This document shows positions 30,000 through 35,980 of a stretch of 35,980 nucleotides of DNA, one piece after another (position 1 is the stretch's first letter; the number at the start of each line of letters is the position of its first letter). The position numbers and the translations under genes were made by a program. The DNA comes from Verrucomicrobiota bacterium (GTDB taxonomy: Bacteria; Verrucomicrobiota; Kiritimatiellia; UBA8416; JAQBFJ01): the NCBI GenBank assembly GCA_032123435.1, contig JAQBFJ010000230.1, forward strand, positions 1-35,980, written 5' to 3'. The notes under the pieces were generated by a model. The model was not told the origin of the DNA. It ran no database searches and saw only the letters and a program-made list of their open reading frames with translations.

Positions 30000-31352
30000 A
30001 TGAGTAAACAAAAAATATTGGTTATTGAAGACGATCCTGACGGGCGCGCGGCAGTTGCCGACGCTTTGAAAGACGCCGGATTCGAAGTTGTGACGGCGGT
30101 TGACGGGAGCACGGGTTGTCGTTTATTCAAGGAGCAGACGTTTGATGTTGTTCTATCCGATTTGATTCTGCCGGATATTGACGGTATAACGGTGTTGAAA
30201 CAGATAAAGCAGGTGGATGTGGAAATGCCTGTTCTGATAATGACCGCTTACGGAACGGTATCTACTGCGGTACAGGCATTAAAGGATGGCGCTTATGATT
30301 ATATTACCAAGCCGCTGGATCTGGACGATTTGCAGTCAAAGGTGCGGCACGCCGCTGAGACACAGCGTCTGAAAACGGAAGTGACTCGTCTTCGGCAATG
30401 TGTAGACGAGCGTTATGGTATCGCGGCAATGGTGGCCGAATCCAGGGGAATGCAGGAAGTGATCAGGCAGGTGAAAATATTGGCTGATACCACGGCAACT
30501 GTCCTGATTCAAGGTGAAAGCGGAACGGGCAAAGAACTGGTTGCGCGTGCTTTGCATGTTGAAGGCAGACGGAGTGGCGAGCCGTTTGTGGCGATTAATT
30601 GCGGCGCGTTCGCCGAGAGTCTTCTGGAATCGGAGCTGTTCGGGCATGAGAAGGGCGCCTTTACCGGCGCTGTAAACACGCGCAAGGGCGCATTTGAGCG
30701 TGCGCATGGCGGAAGTCTTTTTCTGGATGAGATTGGTAACGCGCCGATGTCGGTACAGGTGAAACTGTTGCGCGCGCTGGAAGAACGGGAGATGGTTCGT
30801 GTCGGCGGACAATGTTCGATTCCTGTTGATGTTCGGGTCATCTCGGCTTCCAACAGGATGCTGGATGAGCTTGTTGAGGAAGGCGAGTTCAGGGAAGACT
30901 TATTTTACAGATTAAAAGTGGTTGATCTTACTATCCCGCCGCTTAGAAAACGACCTGCCGATATACGTCCGTTAGTTGATCGTTTTGTTGCGTTGTCGTG
31001 CAGTGAGCATGGCCGCAATATCAAGGCGATTGATGGCGCGTGTTATGACGCGCTCGAAAAGTATGATTGGCCCGGCAATGTACGGCAATTACGCAATGCT
31101 GTTGAGTCGGCGGTCATAATGGTGGCCGGTCCGATTTTACGTATATCGGATTTTCGGATTGATCATGGTATTGATCGGGTGTCAGACCAGTTTCATGTGC
31201 CTGATGGAATGACGCTTGATGAACTTGACAGGGCGATACTTCTGCAATTACTTCAGCGTAATGATGGTAATCGAACGATTGTGGCTGATAAGCTTGGGAT
31301 CTCTCGCCGCACAATTCAACGCAAGATCAAGGAATACGATTTGCCATTTTGA
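30000..31352 (+). CDS. Sigma-54-dependent response regulator (NtrC/ZraR/AtoC family)
   Basis: Receiver domain; GESGTGKE; GAFTGA; WPGNVRQL; Fis-type HTH. Confidence 0.95.
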   Translation: MSKQKILVIEDDPDGRAAVADALKDAGFEVVTAVDGSTGCRLFKEQTFDVVLSDLILPDIDGITVLKQIKQVDVEMPVLIMTAYGTVSTAVQALKDGAYDYITKPLDLDDLQSKVRHAAETQRLKTEVTRLRQCVDERYGIAAMVAESRGMQEVIRQVKILADTTATVLIQGESGTGKELVARALHVEGRRSGEPFVAINCGAFAESLLESELFGHEKGAFTGAVNTRKGAFERAHGGSLFLDEIGNAPMSVQVKLLRALEEREMVRVGGQCSIPVDVRVISASNRMLDELVEEGEFREDLFYRLKVVDLTIPPLRKRPADIRPLVDRFVALSCSEHGRNIKAIDGACYDALEKYDWPGNVRQLRNAVESAVIMVAGPILRISDFRIDHGIDRVSDQFHVPDGMTLDELDRAILLQLLQRNDGNRTIVADKLGISRRTIQRKIKEYDLPF

Positions 31353-31483
31353 TGATATCTGCTGTCCGATTTATCCTTTATTTTGAACCACTACTGTCCG
31401 GTTTTAAAGCCTTGTAATACAGTTGATTATTGATGTTGGGCTCTTGGAGTTCAAGCGCATTTTGCGAGAGCGCCTTTAAAATG

Positions 31484-31520
31484 GGGGTAATAGTTTAGCG
31501 CCTTTCGGGTCCCTCAGTCT
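31484..31520 (+). repeat. GGGGT..TTTAGCGCCTT / CCCTCAGTC REP-like boundary motif (left end of the variable region)
   Basis: Same motifs recur in direct orientation at 35488-35509 and 35570-35578; degenerate inverted copy AAGGCGAATT at 32279. Confidence 0.55.
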
Positions 31521-31521
31521 C

Positions 31522-31549
31522 CCTCAGCGATGGGTCTCCCTATCCCGAT
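31522..31549 (+). mobile_element. Group II intron 3'-terminal (domain VI) remnant
   Basis: CCTCAGCGATGGGTCTCCCTATCCCGAT is nearly identical to 33194-33224. Confidence 0.7.
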
Positions 31550-31554
31550 CGGTG

Positions 31555-31659
31555 TTATTCCATTTCTTTACTTCGTGCCCAGTCAACGTAATCCCACACT
31601 TGATAATCAATAATGATGCTCGCCAGAATGTCCGATGGAATCAGTCCTTGGCTAAACTG
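31555..31659 (-). pseudogene. Orphan 3' fragment of a cassette-like gene
   Basis: 34 open codons (QFSQGLIPSD..RSKEME*) without a start, ending 5 bp from the intron 3' end. Confidence 0.35.
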
Positions 31660-31687
31660 TTAGTCTCGTAAAAAAGAAAGAATAGGA

Positions 31688-31718
31688 TTGCATGCTCCTG
31701 TATTCTATTGTATTCTAT
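31688..31718 (+). promoter_or_regulatory. TA promoter/operator
   Basis: TTGCAT-17-TATTCT overlapped by the tandem repeat TGTATTCTAT x2 (31699-31718). Confidence 0.6.
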
Positions 31719-31739
31719 AGTTGAAGAATGGAGGTAACA

Positions 31740-31979
31740 ATGTCAAAAACGGTAACTCTCAGATTAGATGACAAAGTTTATCGCAAATTTCGAGACTTTG
31801 CGGAAAACGACCGCCGTCCCCTCTCGAATTTTATTGAGACGGCGGCTCTCCGTTTTGTTGAAGAACATGAATATATTGATGAGTTTGAAATGGCGGAAAT
31901 CCGAGACAACGCGAGTCTGAACCGTAGCATCACAGCCGGTCTTCGCGATGTCAAAGCTAAACGAGGTCGGTTTGTCTGA
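31740..31979 (+). CDS. CopG/RHH-family antitoxin
   Basis: MSKTVTLRLDD..LSNFIETA RHH pattern; GGAGG RBS; overlaps the toxin start. Confidence 0.85.
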   Translation: MSKTVTLRLDDKVYRKFRDFAENDRRPLSNFIETAALRFVEEHEYIDEFEMAEIRDNASLNRSITAGLRDVKAKRGRFV

Positions 31980-32280
31980 TTTTCGAATTTTCGAGACCGA
32001 TGAATTTGCAAAGCAGTTCAAGAAGCTGTCCTCGCGCGACGGGAATTTCCTCCGCAGGAAACTCAATTCCTATGTCTACCCACAGATACGAACGGACCCA
32101 TTCTGGGGTACCAACATCAAGAAACATCAAGATTACTCCCCCGCCACATGGCGATATCGGATCGGCAGATTCCGACTGTTTTATGTCGTCGACCAGGAAT
32201 CAAAAACAATCTCTATCCTCACGATCGATGATCGGAAGGATGCTTACAAGCGACCAGGAGAATGGATAACAAGACAATAA
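31972..32280 (+). CDS. relE: RelE/ParE-family toxin
   Basis: FETDEFAKQFKKL..WRYRIGRFRLFY..DDRKDAY; TTG start coupled to the antitoxin stop. Confidence 0.88.
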   Translation: MSDFRIFETDEFAKQFKKLSSRDGNFLRRKLNSYVYPQIRTDPFWGTNIKKHQDYSPATWRYRIGRFRLFYVVDQESKTISILTIDDRKDAYKRPGEWITRQ

Positions 32281-32311
32281 GGCGAATTGTTGACGTTCGC
32301 ATCGGGAGAGG

Positions 32312-32351
32312 CTGAAGGGTCAGAGCCCCCAAAATAGCAAAATAAGAAATT
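32312..32351 (+). repeat. Left arm of a ~40 bp inverted repeat
   Basis: 19 bp core CCCAAAATAGCAAAATAAG (32328-32346) is the exact reverse complement of 35544-35562. Confidence 0.85.
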
Positions 32352-32468
32352 GACGCTGGGTTTCCAGTCGGCTTTAGCTGGAGCAGAAAACGGGCTCGAA
32401 TCTAAGTATTAGCCAATGTTTTCAATAGAAAAAAGATGATCTCGTTGTTTTAGAGAAAAAGTGTTAGG

Positions 32469-32504
32469 CCGACCAGGCCTAGTCGGTATAATAAGTAGTT
32501 GGTT
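32469..32504 (+). mobile_element. attI-like integron recombination site
   Basis: GTATAAT-AAGTA-GTTGGTT preceded by the palindrome CCGACCAGGCCTAGTCGG; GTTGGTT is complementary to AACCAAC (32780-32786) at the end of the next gene. Confidence 0.65.
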
Positions 32505-32514
32505 GAAAGAGGAA

Positions 32515-32847
32515 ATGAAGATATTGAGGTCCACAGGTATTGCCTTGTTGCTCCTAGCGGCCTGCGGTGCGTTCTTCTTCGCAAACGTCGTTGCGGATCC
32601 AACTTGGATCACCGGCCCCGTTCCTCCGTGGTCTGGTTCGGGCATGACTGAGCAAGAGTTCGTTGCGGATTTGAAACACCAGACGCTCCCGTGGAGAATC
32701 GCCTCGGGAGCCCTTCTGGCTGGGGCTCTTGCCATGCTTGCCGTTCAAATCAAAGGAAGACACACAAGAGCCGAGACACAACCAACAACAACATCCACCC
32801 CGAAGCGGTTCATTCGAGGCGTTAAGCGTGGAAATGAGTATGAATAG
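32515..32847 (+). CDS. Small hypothetical membrane protein (gene cassette)
   Basis: GAGG RBS directly after the core site; two hydrophobic segments; reads through the damaged attC. Confidence 0.65.
   Translation: MKILRSTGIALLLLAACGAFFFANVVADPTWITGPVPPWSGSGMTEQEFVADLKHQTLPWRIASGALLAGALAMLAVQIKGRHTRAETQPTTTSTPKRFIRGVKRGNEYE
32780..32827 (+). mobile_element. Shortened/chimeric attC site
   Basis: R'' AACCAAC ... R' GTTAAGC, only 48 bp, with non-complementary inner arms. Confidence 0.55.
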
Positions 32848-32864
32848 AATCCTTCCCTCATCTT

Positions 32865-32893
32865 TGCGGCAACCGTCAACCAGATTGTTCTGT
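32865..32893 (-). mobile_element. Half attC (R'' ACAGAAC + spacer + L''-like GGTTGACG), truncated
   Basis: Begins 9 bp after the stop of the 32903 ORF; no complementary arm. Confidence 0.45.
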
Positions 32894-32902
32894 CGATAGG
32901 AA

Positions 32903-33130
32903 TTACGTTTTTGGCAATGATGGCCAATTTGTCCATTCATCCTGAAATGCGACTGGAACGCCCTGCTTTCCACACACTCTGATCGTGTGACCGGTCCCGC
33001 CTTTCATTGGATTATCCTGATTGACGTAAAAGATGCCTACTGTCGCAGGTGACAACGCGCATTCCGCCGCGCCAATAACTTTGATGGTGTCGCGTAGAAG
33101 GTACAGTATGTCGGAGGATGTGAAGTTCAA
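32903..33130 (-). pseudogene. 3' fragment of a SLOG-like (DprA/YpsA-related) cassette gene
   Basis: GGTGHTIRVC..GVPV resembles the SLOG C-terminal motif; the 5' part is replaced by the intron remnant. Confidence 0.45.
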
Positions 33131-33147
33131 TGGAGCTTCACCAGCAA

Positions 33148-33224
33148 GAACCGCCCGGTGCGGACCCGCATGCCGTGGTGGTGTGGGAGGGGGCCTCAGC
33201 GATGGGGCTTCCCCCTATCCCGAT
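33148..33224 (+). mobile_element. Group IIC(-attC) intron remnant: domains V and VI
   Basis: GAACCGCCCGGTGCGGACCCGCATGCC..GGTGGTGTG (CGC triad); domain VI ends CCTATCCCGAT; 3' exon TCGGT; no RT ORF present. Confidence 0.88.
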
Positions 33225-33670
33225 TCGGTTATTTTTTTCTTTAATTCATTCAAATGGCGAAACGGGAAGCAGATCCAAAACGTCATCTGGTTTCCTTGCC
33301 GATTGCTCGGCCCATCTTTCATGACAAAGATCTTCTCCCCTCGACACTTGGCGAGGAATGCATCAATCTTCCGGTTCTGCTCCTCGATTTCCGCAATTGT
33401 GCCAAGGCGACCGACAAGAGGTCTTCGAAGGAGCCACGATGCAAAACGTGCGAACCATTCCCCTTTGATCGGTTCAGGTGATCGGTTTGTAAAACTGTCA
33501 AGATCAGACAACAGCGACTCTTGATCTCGATATGGCCATACGGTGTGATAACTATGACGTGTGCCTCCCGTGCGTTCGACTACATCAATCTTGAGTTCCT
33601 GACCATCTGGATGATCAGCTATTGTTGTCTGATACGTCGTGGGGCCAATTTTGATAGTTTCGTTTATCAT
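33215..33670 (-). CDS. Hypothetical protein (gene cassette)
   Basis: ATG at 33670, 8 bp after core site GTTCGGT; ends at R'' ACCGAA, with the stop supplied by intron sequence. Confidence 0.7.
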   Translation of the reverse strand: MINETIKIGPTTYQTTIADHPDGQELKIDVVERTGGTRHSYHTVWPYRDQESLLSDLDSFTNRSPEPIKGEWFARFASWLLRRPLVGRLGTIAEIEEQNRKIDAFLAKCRGEKIFVMKDGPSNRQGNQMTFWICFPFRHLNELKKKITESG

Positions 33671-33678
33671 TCTCTTAA

Positions 33679-33757
33679 ACCGAACGTCCTGCTCACCGGA
33701 CCAGTGAGGACGCGCACCGCGCGGCCTTACTGGGTACGGCGTAGCAACTGGTTCTGC
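33679..33757 (-). mobile_element. attC site (79 bp)
   Basis: R'' GCAGAAC-CAGTT-GCTACGCC ... GGTGAGC-AGGAC-GTTCGGT R'; long imperfect hairpin with two extrahelical bases. Confidence 0.85.
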
Positions 33758-33789
33758 ATTCTGTCTCAAGGATTGTAGGGAGACACTAT

Positions 33790-34638
33790 TTAGTCTGTTT
33801 CGAGTACAACTCGAAACCCGGTCGTGTACCATCCATCGTCTTTGTCGGTCCGCGTAGTGTAAGCATCAGATGCCACCAAGTCAGGCAAATCGTACCACGA
33901 TCCGCCGCAGCACACGATTTCGGTACACCATTCGGCCACGTTCCCATGCATGTCGTAGAGACCCCACGGATTTGGCTTGAAGCTGCCGACCGGGGCCGTG
34001 TTGTTGTGGCCGTCACTGTAGAGCTTGTCCTTAAAGACAAGATCATACGGGTTCGACGGATCGAGTCTGCGGGAGTTGTCAGCGTAGTTGGCGTGTTCTG
34101 GTAATTCGGCAACATCGTCGCCAAAGCTGTACTTCGTGCTAGTTCCCGCTCTGCAAGCGTATTGCCATTCAGCCTGGCTCGGCAGTCTGTACTCTTTTCC
34201 ATCCGTGGCACTGAGCGTCCGGCAGAAGTCGACAGCTTGCTGCCACGACACTTTCTCAACAGGGCGCTCGCCACCCTCAAACTGACTTGGGTTGTTCTTT
34301 GTGACGGACTCGTACTGACTCTGTGTAATTTCGTGAATAGAGAAGTAGACTGCCCTTGGCAGATCCGTTGTGGCAGATCCCGGATTCCCGGGCTCGATAA
34401 GTCGGAATTCAATTCCGATTGAATTTGTCACTACATGCGCAAGTGGTGCAGAGGCGGAACTGGCGAGAAGCACGTCGTTACCCTCGATAGTCTGGACAGC
34501 CTCAGAATGCGGGACGGTGATGTCCGTGGCCGTGTTGGTCGATGCCGACCTCGCTGGTTCGGGTTGTCTATCTCCACCACATCCAGACATTAACATCACT
34601 GCGGCGATTGCGCAGACACCAGTGGATAGTGTTTTCAT
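33790..34638 (-). CDS. FGE/SUMF1-domain lipoprotein (gene cassette)
   Basis: Lipobox LMSGC; RLPSQAEWQYACRAG, NPWGLYDMHGNVAEWC and GFRVV. Confidence 0.9.
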   Translation of the reverse strand: MKTLSTGVCAIAAVMLMSGCGGDRQPEPARSASTNTATDITVPHSEAVQTIEGNDVLLASSASAPLAHVVTNSIGIEFRLIEPGNPGSATTDLPRAVYFSIHEITQSQYESVTKNNPSQFEGGERPVEKVSWQQAVDFCRTLSATDGKEYRLPSQAEWQYACRAGTSTKYSFGDDVAELPEHANYADNSRRLDPSNPYDLVFKDKLYSDGHNNTAPVGSFKPNPWGLYDMHGNVAEWCTEIVCCGGSWYDLPDLVASDAYTTRTDKDDGWYTTGFRVVLETD

Positions 34639-34655
34639 GCCGATCTCCCTTCCTT

Positions 34656-34674
34656 GCAGAACTACTTATTAGCC
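34656..34674 (-). mobile_element. 19 bp hybrid attC-R''/attI junction (attI*-like)
   Basis: GGCTAAT-AAGTA-GTTCTGC. Confidence 0.7.
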
Positions 34675-34682
34675 GTGATTCT

Positions 34683-34880
34683 CTAAGCCGTTGCAAGCTG
34701 GTAGGAGAACTCGTTAACATCGGTTTGGTCTTTGGCATGTTCAACTGTCATGCTGACGACATGACCATCTTTATCAACCTCGACCAGAACGTCTTCATTC
34801 AAGTCGTATGTCTCTGTGATGTCATGCTTGCTAAATGTCAGCAAGAGTGTGTCTGTGTCTGAGAAGTATTTTGCTTTCAT
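34683..34880 (-). CDS. DUF2283-family putative antitoxin
   Basis: MKAKYFSDTDTLLLTF..VDKDGHVVSMTVEHA; acidic, 65 aa. Confidence 0.85.
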   Translation of the reverse strand: MKAKYFSDTDTLLLTFSKHDITETYDLNEDVLVEVDKDGHVVSMTVEHAKDQTDVNEFSYQLATA

Positions 34881-34885
34881 TATAT

Positions 34886-35122
34886 TTACTCCTTAAATCT
34901 TCTGTCAAAAAATGCATTATGAATGGTAGTGCCATCTTCCAGAAGGACTACTCTTAAATACTTGCTATCTGCTTCAATTATCTTTTTCCACCGGCGAATG
35001 CGGCCATCGGCCTGAACTCTTTCGACGTCAGGGGCAAGAACCGTGCTTTCGATCCAGTCCAACTTGATTGTAGCACGGTCAGGCCGTATTCTCGTATGTT
35101 CAAAATACTGGGTGAACTTCAT
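34886..35122 (-). CDS. Putative toxin partner (DUF4258/RelE-like fold)
   Basis: Basic, 78 aa; QADGRIRRW..YLRVVLLEDGTTIHNAFFDR; directly upstream of DUF2283. Confidence 0.75.
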   Translation of the reverse strand: MKFTQYFEHTRIRPDRATIKLDWIESTVLAPDVERVQADGRIRRWKKIIEADSKYLRVVLLEDGTTIHNAFFDRRFKE

Positions 35123-35128
35123 GCTGAA

Positions 35129-35157
35129 AACATAGCAAAGAGCTACCCGATAGTCCA
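35129..35157 (-). promoter_or_regulatory. Cassette-internal sigma-70 promoter giving a probably leaderless transcript
   Basis: TGGACT-17-TATGTT with TGn extension; ATG 6 nt after the -10 box; no SD. Confidence 0.55.
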
Positions 35158-35177
35158 GACATTCAATTGTTCTTTAC

Positions 35178-35269
35178 GGCTAACTACTTATTCAACAGAT
35201 CTCGTTATCCTTCCAAATCGGGAGGTAAACGCTATCTCGTTATCCTGCCAATTTGGGAGGCAAAGTGTT
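35178..35269 (-). mobile_element. Second attI-like site with upstream 35 bp-period direct repeats
   Basis: GTTGAAT-AAGTA-GTTAGCC (35178-35196); repeats ATCTCGTTATCCTKCCAAWTYGGGAGG start at 35199 and 35234. Confidence 0.65.
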
Positions 35270-35538
35270 CTCACTCGTCATTTCGTGTCGCAAGTACCAC
35301 TCCATGCCGTATTTGTTCTCAAACATGCGACAACACAGCCAGACTATAATACGTGCTGCGCCAACGTCAAGCATGTTTCGGAATGGAAATGAGATGCGTT
35401 CATGCATCCCACTTGTTGTTTGGAGCAGAATGACACCTGGCTGAGTGAGAAAAACACTTTGCAGAAAGACCAAGGTCACACAAAGTCGGGGTCTGCCATT
35501 TAGCGCCTTGATGGCTGGTCCCGGTAAGAGATAGAAAT

Positions 35539-35576
35539 AATTCCTTATTTTGCTATTTTGGGAGCTGACCCCTCAG
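35539..35576 (-). repeat. Right arm of the ~40 bp inverted repeat
   Basis: Reverse complement CTGAGGGGTCAGCTCCCAAAATAGCAAAATAAGGAATT vs CTGAAGGGTCAGAGCCCCCAAAATAGCAAAATAAGAAATT. Confidence 0.85.
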
Positions 35577-35614
35577 TCCCACGACTCCTCAGTCCCACAC
35601 TGTGTCCCCGAAAT

Positions 35615-35980
35615 CTACGTTTCCAGGTCTTTTGTATTGTTGGCATCGAAAGTCAGGATGAATTCAGAGCCTTTCCCTGGTTCACTTACTACATCTATTG
35701 TACCGCCGTTCCTGGTGATAAGGCGATATGTTATGGAGAGTCCGAGTCCGAGCCCTTTTTGCGCTTTTTTTGTCGTGAAAAAAGGATCGAAAATATTTTC
35801 CTGCACCTGTTTTTCCATGCCTGGTCCATTATCCTTTATCCGGACAACGACAGATTCTCCTTCCGCCTGCAATGATATTTCGATTGTTCCTTTGTTGTTC
35901 ATGGCGTCTGCCGCGTTGTTCAGCAGATTCAATATGGCGTGCTGGATCTGTATTCCATCCAGGAACAGGGTTGGGATATT
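35615..35980 (-). CDS. Histidine kinase, C-terminal HATPase_c domain (5' part outside the window)
   Basis: NLLNNAADAM, DNGPGM, FDPFFTTK and GLGLGL. Confidence 0.9.
   Translation of the reverse strand, partial: NIPTLFLDGIQIQHAILNLLNNAADAMNNKGTIEISLQAEGESVVVRIKDNGPGMEKQVQENIFDPFFTTKKAQKGLGLGLSITYRLITRNGGTIDVVSEPGKGSEFILTFDANNTKDLET

Follow-up and report, generated by a model that had tools for sequence, protein, structure and literature searches.

Toxin-antitoxin cassettes in sedentary chromosomal integrons (Vibrio) carry normal attC sites. Another kind of cassette end, in which attC is replaced by a partial attI, is described from class 1 and class 2 mobile integrons, numbering 96 in 1,685 class 1 integrons and 14 in 57 class 2 integrons, with delta-attI1-11 predominating (PMC12901181). 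According to the available text of that source, the minimal delta-attI1 consensus is AAACAAAGTTRRRY, the attI1 L box is CCCTAAA, and these ends are traced to crossing over of the attI1 L box with the R'' box of an attC, for which Partridge 2000 is cited; aadA1-delta-attI1-11 and Tn1331 are named, bearing out the precedent that a preliminary description of the present locus had invoked (an attI1 hybrid after aadA1 in Tn1331, formed by crossover between R'' and attI). The same text has delta-attI cassettes circularising and inserting with IntI1, excision from attI1-aadB-delta-attI1-11 being poor and not significantly above the no-integrase control, upstream direct repeats acting as accessory sites in a full attI, and attI x attI recombination taking place in class 1. 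Delta-attI ends are rare and so far on record only from clinical resistance integrons of classes 1 and 2, in which they alter both the ease of cassette release and the expression of the gene that follows.

Here we analyse a stretch of 35,980 nucleotides (the window), which is the entire contig C230 of a MAG (G000) of 289 contigs in a 2.57-Mb assembly. Judged by its sequence, a site between two cassettes of the window is a new case, in an environmental chromosomal integron, of a type already known from mobile integrons of classes 1 and 2, where it has been shown to function (PMC12901181, available text). A literature search for such sites in environmental or sedentary chromosomal integrons surfaced no description, which is weak evidence that none has been published.

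Results

A cassette junction without an attC

Positions 34656-34674 read gcagaactacttattagcc on the plus strand and GGCTAATAAGTAGTTCTGC on the minus strand, the latter being the succession of GGCTAA, TAAGTAG and TTCTGC that the preliminary description had read at 34674..34656 (Table 1). The DUF2283 gene stops (TAG) 8 nt before GGCTAA and the FGE gene starts (34638) 21 nt past the TT, leaving a gap of 44 nt from the DUF2283 stop to the FGE ATG, which is too short for an attC between the two genes; folding of the 26-nt junction predicted no structure (0.0 kcal/mol). Nine nucleotides at the junction, AATAAGTAG, are identical to attI-A, the base preceding G↓TT (the arrow marks a point of exchange) is A, as in all five attI-A copies, and R'' ends in T, like the L arm of attI (GTTGAA↓T), not in C. 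Within the folded set of attCs with a defined R', C precedes G↓TT in eight of nine, the exception being the atypical 85-nt site behind cassette 3.

The junction is not an assembly artefact, as contigs assembled in other studies run through it with 0 differences (X7 record 22, covering 33600-35249; X14 record 10, covering 34592-34742) and likewise cross both neighbouring boundaries with 0 differences (X7 record 22; X14 records 10, 11 and 12). An Rfam scan of 31000-35980 returned one sub-threshold chance match only, and the repeats of this region are explained by no known RNA.

Table 1. Coordinates of the cassettes, recombination sites, predicted promoters and repeats discussed in the text (positions in the window).
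Feature	Position	Strand	Basis or remarks
attI-B copy	32362..32500	+	Homologous to attI beside intI-B in G010:C112
REP-like repeat preceding attI-B copy	32324-32351	+	Dispersed-repeat comparison
Cassette 3	33151..33684	-	Starts TTCGGT; 152-aa ORF (33673..33215), family without assignment
Atypical attC-like site of cassette 3, 85 nt	33229..33145	-	R'' ACCGAAT, R' GTTCTTG; contains dispersed G-rich repeat
Cassette 2 (FGE)	33685..34661	-	ORF and canonical attC
FGE-sulfatase-domain lipoprotein-like ORF	34638..33790	-	Pfam PF03781, E 1.1e-28
FGE attC, 79 nt	33757..33679	-	R'' GCAGAAC, R' GTTCGGT; ends GAC-GTTCGGT
Delta-attI-type junction (probable)	34656..34674	-	GGCTAA-TAAGTAG-TTCTGC, read 34674..34656
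R'' remnant GGCTAA	34674..34669	-	Part of junction
attI-A centre TAAGTAG	34668..34662	-	Part of junction; ends at crossover G before TT
FGE cassette start TTCTGC	34661..34656	-	Part of junction
Cassette 1, 522 nt	34662..35183	-	Starts TTAGCC (G↓TTAGCC), ends GGCTAA-TAAGTAG, without attC
DUF2283 ORF	34880..34683	-	Pfam PF10049, E 8.5e-13, 48.7 bits (cut-off 23)
78-aa ORF	35122..34886	-	Partner of DUF2283 ORF
Sigma-70 consensus TTGACA-18-TATAAT, 12/12	34879..34908	-	Promoter scan; predicted
attI-A	35184..35384	-	Primary recombination site of integron without intI here
Pc-like promoter of attI-A, TTGACG-16-TATAGT	35370..35343	-	Promoter scan
Two 31-nt direct repeats of attI-A	35234-35264, 35199-35229	-	Repeat search
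attI-A core GTTGAA-TAAGTAG	ends at crossover G, 35184	-	Comparison of attI-A copies
Dispersed repeat block in place of intI	35437..35600	-	90% identical to C206:2612-2770

The repeated 11-mer and the expectation by chance

The 11-mer AATAAGTAGTT occurs exactly three times in the window, once on the plus strand (32490..32500) and twice on the minus strand (34660; 35192..35182), where the two copies lie 522 nt apart, flank the two-gene module of cassette 1 and are extended by the inverted hexamers TTAGCC and GGCTAA, the latter complementary to the start of cassette 1. With up to one mismatch allowed, 0.36 matches are expected in the window, and three were reached in 1 of 100 shuffles. By itself, the 11-nt direct repeat is within chance expectation: none of 200 first-order Markov simulations of the window was free of exact 11-mer direct repeats spaced within 1 kb, the average being 12. 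Nor is AATAAGTAGTT enriched in the whole 2.57-Mb assembly, where it has four matches against three for a reversed control pattern, and the genome-wide count that the preliminary description had proposed thus does not discriminate. The fourth match (C129:3216) was rejected as a genuine junction, as it sits inside the end of an ORF, in its last codons, and looks like chance, as do the extra core copies in two relatives (L054 and L057 in G010 and G045).

As chance by itself would produce exact 11-mers within 1 kb, the argument shifts to comparative boundaries. Three of these, independently defined, meet on AATAAGTAGTT and raise the signal above chance, namely the end of the attI homology, the end of the cassette homology with a locus in another MAG (L025), and the start of the FGE cassette, which is the complement of the R'' of its own attC.

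attI-A and its missing integrase gene

The homology search with 33700-35620 covered 61 genomes (G000 and 60 relatives, mostly from the same order), among which 35384..35182 is conserved in G010 (85-92% identical; G010:C185:1142-1386) and in G045, with the homology stopping at the base equivalent to 35182. The G010 site comprises three repeats of the 31-nt unit of attI-A and the core GTTGACTAAGTAG↓TT, with an unrelated lipoprotein cassette after it and a divergently oriented intI before it, and this gene scores as an integron integrase (TIGR02249, 386.3 bits against a cut-off of 265). Five distinct attI-A copies, two metagenome contigs included, share TGA(A/C)TAAGTAG and diverge straight after G↓TT, continuing as TTAGCC, TTATGA, TTCTGC, TTGGAT and TTGTGC. 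What had been described as the right-hand attI-like site of the window is, from its identity to the region beside the divergent intI of G010, a true attI.

No intI was found in the window, where attI-A accordingly lacks the adjoining integrase gene of a complete integron, and the assembly holds no intact copy, only an IntI-A fragment on C206 (90% identical over residues 151-324, frameshifted and missing about 94 N-terminal residues; 215.6 bits against the TIGR02249 cut-off of 265) and a 76-aa contig-end piece on C182. Homology between the window and G010 ends near 35384, and beyond it lie a dispersed repeat block and a histidine kinase. The same repeat block adjoins the truncated intI-A fragment (C206:1821-2770; window region 35385-35615), and its boundary is reproduced in an independent contig (X14 record 12). 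A variant contig of X7 runs from 35384 into sequence like the intI-proximal side of the G010 site, so forms bearing intI probably exist in the environment.

The number of 31-nt repeats varies among the loci compared (35199-35264, L017 and L060), from two in the window to three in G010 and at least four in L060, and contigs of X5 and X7 hold a variant with 29 extra letters at 35220-35230. At G045:C115 (L022/L061), attI-A is followed by TTCTGC, the same six bases as the start of the FGE cassette of the window; the cassette there differs from FGE, being a two-gene pair, BrnT/BrnA-like by eye, with its own R'' GCAGAAC, and the intI start beside this attI-A meets a stop after 7 codons.

The DUF2283 module and its homologues

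Cassette 1 has the antitoxin-like DUF2283 domain of a DUF4258/DUF2283 type II pair and no partner from a recognised toxin family: the 78-aa ORF has no Pfam match at E<=0.01 and a homologue of it gives DUF4258 at E 0.15, so that toxin-antitoxin is a putative label for the module. The perfect predicted promoter (34908..34879) lies within the 3' part of the 78-aa ORF, immediately ahead of the DUF2283 start.

With seven aligned DUF2283 proteins as query, a scan of species genomes yielded 19 loci, in MAGs labelled Lentisphaerales, Victivallales, Kiritimatiellae and others; six of the 19 are the same records as loci from the 61-genome search. Past the stop codon, a clear R''-hairpin-GTT attC follows at six loci (L025, L027, L034, L035, L038, L040), an attC that is partial, uncertain or cut by the contig end at four (L029, L030, L039, L042), and none at the remaining nine. 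Homologous modules with an attC starting GGCTAAC, as the preliminary description had anticipated, were found at 3/19 loci (L025, L027, L029), where this R'' stands 7-8 nt past the stop, as in the window. At L025 the preceding attC ends GAC-GTTAGCC and is followed by two genes, TAG, 8 nt and GGCTAAC-AAGATG...GAC-GTTCGCA, and pairwise alignment places the homology with the window from GTTAGCC to GGCTAA(C/T)AAG. By this alignment L025 carries the canonical form of the same cassette, with a full attC.

The FGE cassette and its neighbour

The bottom strand of the FGE attC folds into an imperfect hairpin (-21.1 kcal/mol), and its R'' GCAGAAC is the exact complement of its own cassette start GTTCTGC. 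It has an RYYYAAC-like R'', departing from RYYY at two positions, an R' with GTT, an apparently bulged hairpin and a length within the 57-141 nt of attC sites. Starts that match R'' in the same manner also occur in G010 (TCATAAC/GTTATGA; ACACAAC/GTTGTGT) and G045 (GCAGAAC/GTTCTGC). Between cassettes we also observed a G-rich repeat, CGGGATAGGGAGCCCCATCGCTGAGG (window 31522-31549 and 33194-33224 (-); C129:3244-3267; C287:15887-15912), one copy of which is embedded in the 85-nt attC-like site behind the 152-aa ORF.

A second integron type and its dispersed attI-B

The copy of the 11-mer on the plus strand belongs to attI-B, with the centre TAAGTAG at 32492-32498 and the crossover G at 32498, followed by a cassette that starts TTGGTT and has the matching R'' AACCAAC. 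This left-hand site, previously noted as attI-like, is an attI, of a second integron type, because it is homologous to a site adjoining a second divergently oriented intI in G010:C112 (404.1 bits against the TIGR02249 cut-off of 265; 56% identical to IntI-A). The alignment with G010:C112 runs from CAGTCGGCTTTAGCTGG through GGTATAA-TAATAAG↓TTGG, and finding the element beside intI-B led us to drop its reading as an attC family or as a promoter-bearing MITE. This is the one occurrence among the 60 relatives searched (L045).

G000 itself holds 15 copies (14 by BLAST), each ending in G↓TT before a different gene, on C26, C33, C87, C117, C129 (two), C150, C211, C218, C248, C258 (two, 478 nt apart), C275, C287 and the window, and 0/15 stand beside an intI. 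The element spans 62 to about 140 nt, its upstream side being truncated in three length classes and abutting REP-like repeats, and a perfect TATAAT box precedes its crossover by a few bases; the promoter scan called no promoter in attI-B, owing to a poor -35. By their structure the copies look like long delta-attI-B sites spread through arrays. Among the 15 centre heptamers, TAATGAG occurs seven times, TAATAAG five times, and TAATAGG, TATTTAG and TAAGTAG once each, the last in the window copy only, which may be either a second L-side hybrid with attI-A, made at the same AA↓ breakpoint, or the product of two point changes.

Other features of this part of the window are of separate interest. The REP-like repeat, GGGACTGAGGGGTCAGCCC then CAAAATAGCAAAATAAGG, lies at 32324-32351 (+) and 35539-35600 (-) in the window and has about 35 copies in the genome, with its 5' part often tandem, often at contig ends and in several cases upstream of a putative IS200/RAYT-type ORF (C21, C23, C87, C132). 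Upstream of the REP/attI-B block, 31728-32280 (+) holds another putative toxin-antitoxin pair, made up of two overlapping ORFs, one of 83 aa (RHH-like) and one of 110 aa (ParE/RelE family; PF05016, E 2.5e-5). Within 32515-33145, the frame of a 110-aa ORF continues across its own short attC (32780-32827) to a stop inside the cassette that follows. The segment 32821-33099 is 91% identical to C218:2960-3238 and holds only the C-terminal part of a longer minus-strand ORF on C218, so that a plus-strand array fragment and the minus-strand array meet head to head near 33100-33145.

Discussion

A probable attI-derived cassette end and how it may have arisen

The site at 34656-34674 is, we think, probably a cassette end of the delta-attI type, belonging to an environmental chromosomal integron. 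The array lies downstream of attI, an attI 3' segment ending in G↓TT takes the place of attC, and an R'' remnant is left alongside a canonical form of the cassette elsewhere; in cassette 1, the 7-nt attI-A centre substitutes for the whole interval from the final R'' base to the crossover G. The coinciding boundaries and the canonical form at L025 support what had been proposed from the window by itself, that attI-derived sequence replaced attC in an environmental integron. Strand exchange would have taken place at the AA↓ common to the attC R'' (GGCTAA↓C) and the attI L box (GTTGAA↓T), 7 nt from G↓TT, which would be the L x R'' type of crossover proposed for class 1 delta-attI cassettes. The hybrid could have formed by excision, giving a circle with GGCTAA-TAAGTAG-TTAGCC that then re-entered an attI-A whose first cassette was FGE, or by a single unequal exchange between two copies of the array.

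Four other explanations deserve weighing, and the first is an internal attC deletion (Partridge type i, with only R'' recognisable) that fused R'' and a few bases after it to the last ones before G↓TT, the identity to attI being coincidental. Truncated attCs are a known class (PMC12901181, available text), short exact repeats are common by chance, and both GGCTAA and the AAG after it are native to the attC of this cassette at L025, L027 and L029, such that an attI origin and a deletion are told apart here only by the T, by the TA before G and by the absence of a hairpin. The T is weaker evidence than it appears, as the R'' ACCGAAT of the same array also ends in AAT. However, a deletion should leave a C at the end of R'' and, as in eight of nine attCs, a C before G↓TT, where the junction has T and TA; three additional substitutions would be required, each of them towards attI-A. 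All seven central positions match attI-A (about 6e-5 by chance for seven free bases) and the same heptamer recurs at attI-B, the second such site of the window. A deletion strikes us as improbable. We give much the same low standing to integrase-independent recombination at microhomology, in which CTAA(C)AAG of an attC paired with GAA(T)AAG of attI-A (eight of nine matching) between two array copies, with the same product, which sequence by itself does not tell apart from that of an integrase. TAA-AAG is indeed common to both sequences, the assembly is without an intact intI, and dispersed repeats and rearranged array fragments abound in the genome; against this, the breakpoint falls exactly where the class 1 model has the integrase cut, 7 nt from G↓TT, and the apparent attI-B hybrid breaks at the same place although its centre lacks that microhomology. 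The crossover mechanism is one that we infer from sequence and from class 1 work, and the position of the breakpoint 7 nt from G↓TT makes an integrase-mediated exchange the preferred form of it.

Explanations that dispense with integrons, or with the junction itself, fare worse. An ordinary two-gene module that shares an operon with the gene beside it, the repeat being accidental or the target-site duplication of a transposed module, would suit a window that has no intI and an 11-mer that is insignificant alone and not enriched genome-wide. We hold this to be very improbable, as the attI is homologous to intI-linked sites, the neighbouring cassettes are flanked by canonical attCs with matching R''/R', the same module is a canonical cassette elsewhere, and the 522-nt segment has neither a transposase nor terminal repeats. 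Least credible of all, to the point of being negligible, is an assembly chimera joining two contigs at a short repeat, which a fragmented MAG with many repeats at its contig ends might invite and which the error-free crossing of the junction and both boundaries by contigs of X7 and X14 contradicts.

Present state and wider meaning

If the site is a delta-attI-type end, the module lies between two directly repeated simple sites and could leave as the 522-nt circle with GGCTAA-TAAGTAG-TTAGCC. Were IntI-A supplied, excision should be poor and should leave attI-A joined to the FGE cassette. Neither a circle nor an empty attI-FGE joint was found in the contigs of four runs, but contigs drop rare forms, and the absence of these joints therefore says nothing on excision; a 23-mer of the junction or empty site had 0 matches in metagenome contigs, from a collection in which the organism seems to be absent or left out. 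With no intact intI assembled, the junction has probably become fixed in the population sampled here. The consensus promoter and the lack of a hairpin before the FGE gene suggest co-expression, the module and the FGE gene probably being transcribed together from Pc and from the promoter predicted in the 78-aa ORF. In this genome, a putative addiction module would thereby be kept in the place next to attI and linked to the FGE gene.

A more far-reaching reading, to which we give limited and tentative credence, is that attI-derived double-strand sites are a routine alternative to attC hairpins in this lineage, with cassettes shuffled largely by exchange of the attI x attI type, including cuts on the L-box side. 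It is based on one delta-attI-A junction, on 15 attI-B copies in three length classes and on one centre swapped to that of attI-A, and, if true, such shuffling would equip every cassette downstream with a promoter of its own. From the number of attI-B copies, sites derived from attI seem able to shape entire arrays, and this abundance is the more unusual lead of the two. For the junction itself, finding the same geometry in an unrelated environmental integron makes the L-box x R'' crossover look general to integron integrases, not a quirk of IntI1, and with attI-A, the canonical cassette of L025 and the hybrid, the locus offers a natural substrate set for that crossover.

Comparison with known systems

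Like the toxin-antitoxin cassettes of Vibrio, cassette 1 is a small two-gene module in an array, with its own predicted promoter and plausibly a stabilising role; unlike them, it stands first in the array, has a delta-attI end and includes a partner without a toxin family. Set beside the simple site of attI1 with its L and R boxes, as given in the available text of PMC12901181, the junction has two inverted integrase-binding-like arms and a short centre ending in G↓TT, whereas its arms, GGCTAA and TTCTGC, are putative and it has no accessory repeats. Its differences from the class 1 delta-attI ends of the same text lie in the setting, an environmental integron with the attI-A centre TAAGTAG and a TIGR02249-family integrase in PVC-type MAGs, in a cargo that is a DUF2283 two-gene module and not a resistance gene, in a retained attI identity of 9 nt including G ('-9', as against mostly -11 in class 1), and in the loss of intI at the window locus. 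What it has in common with these ends, within the scope of that text, is the arrangement that defines them: the 3' end of attI, as far as the G↓TT crossover, stands in for an attC whose R'' survives immediately upstream, 7 nt separate the AA↓ of R''/L from ↓TT, and the architecture is attI-ORF-delta-attI, with a canonical version of the cassette elsewhere.
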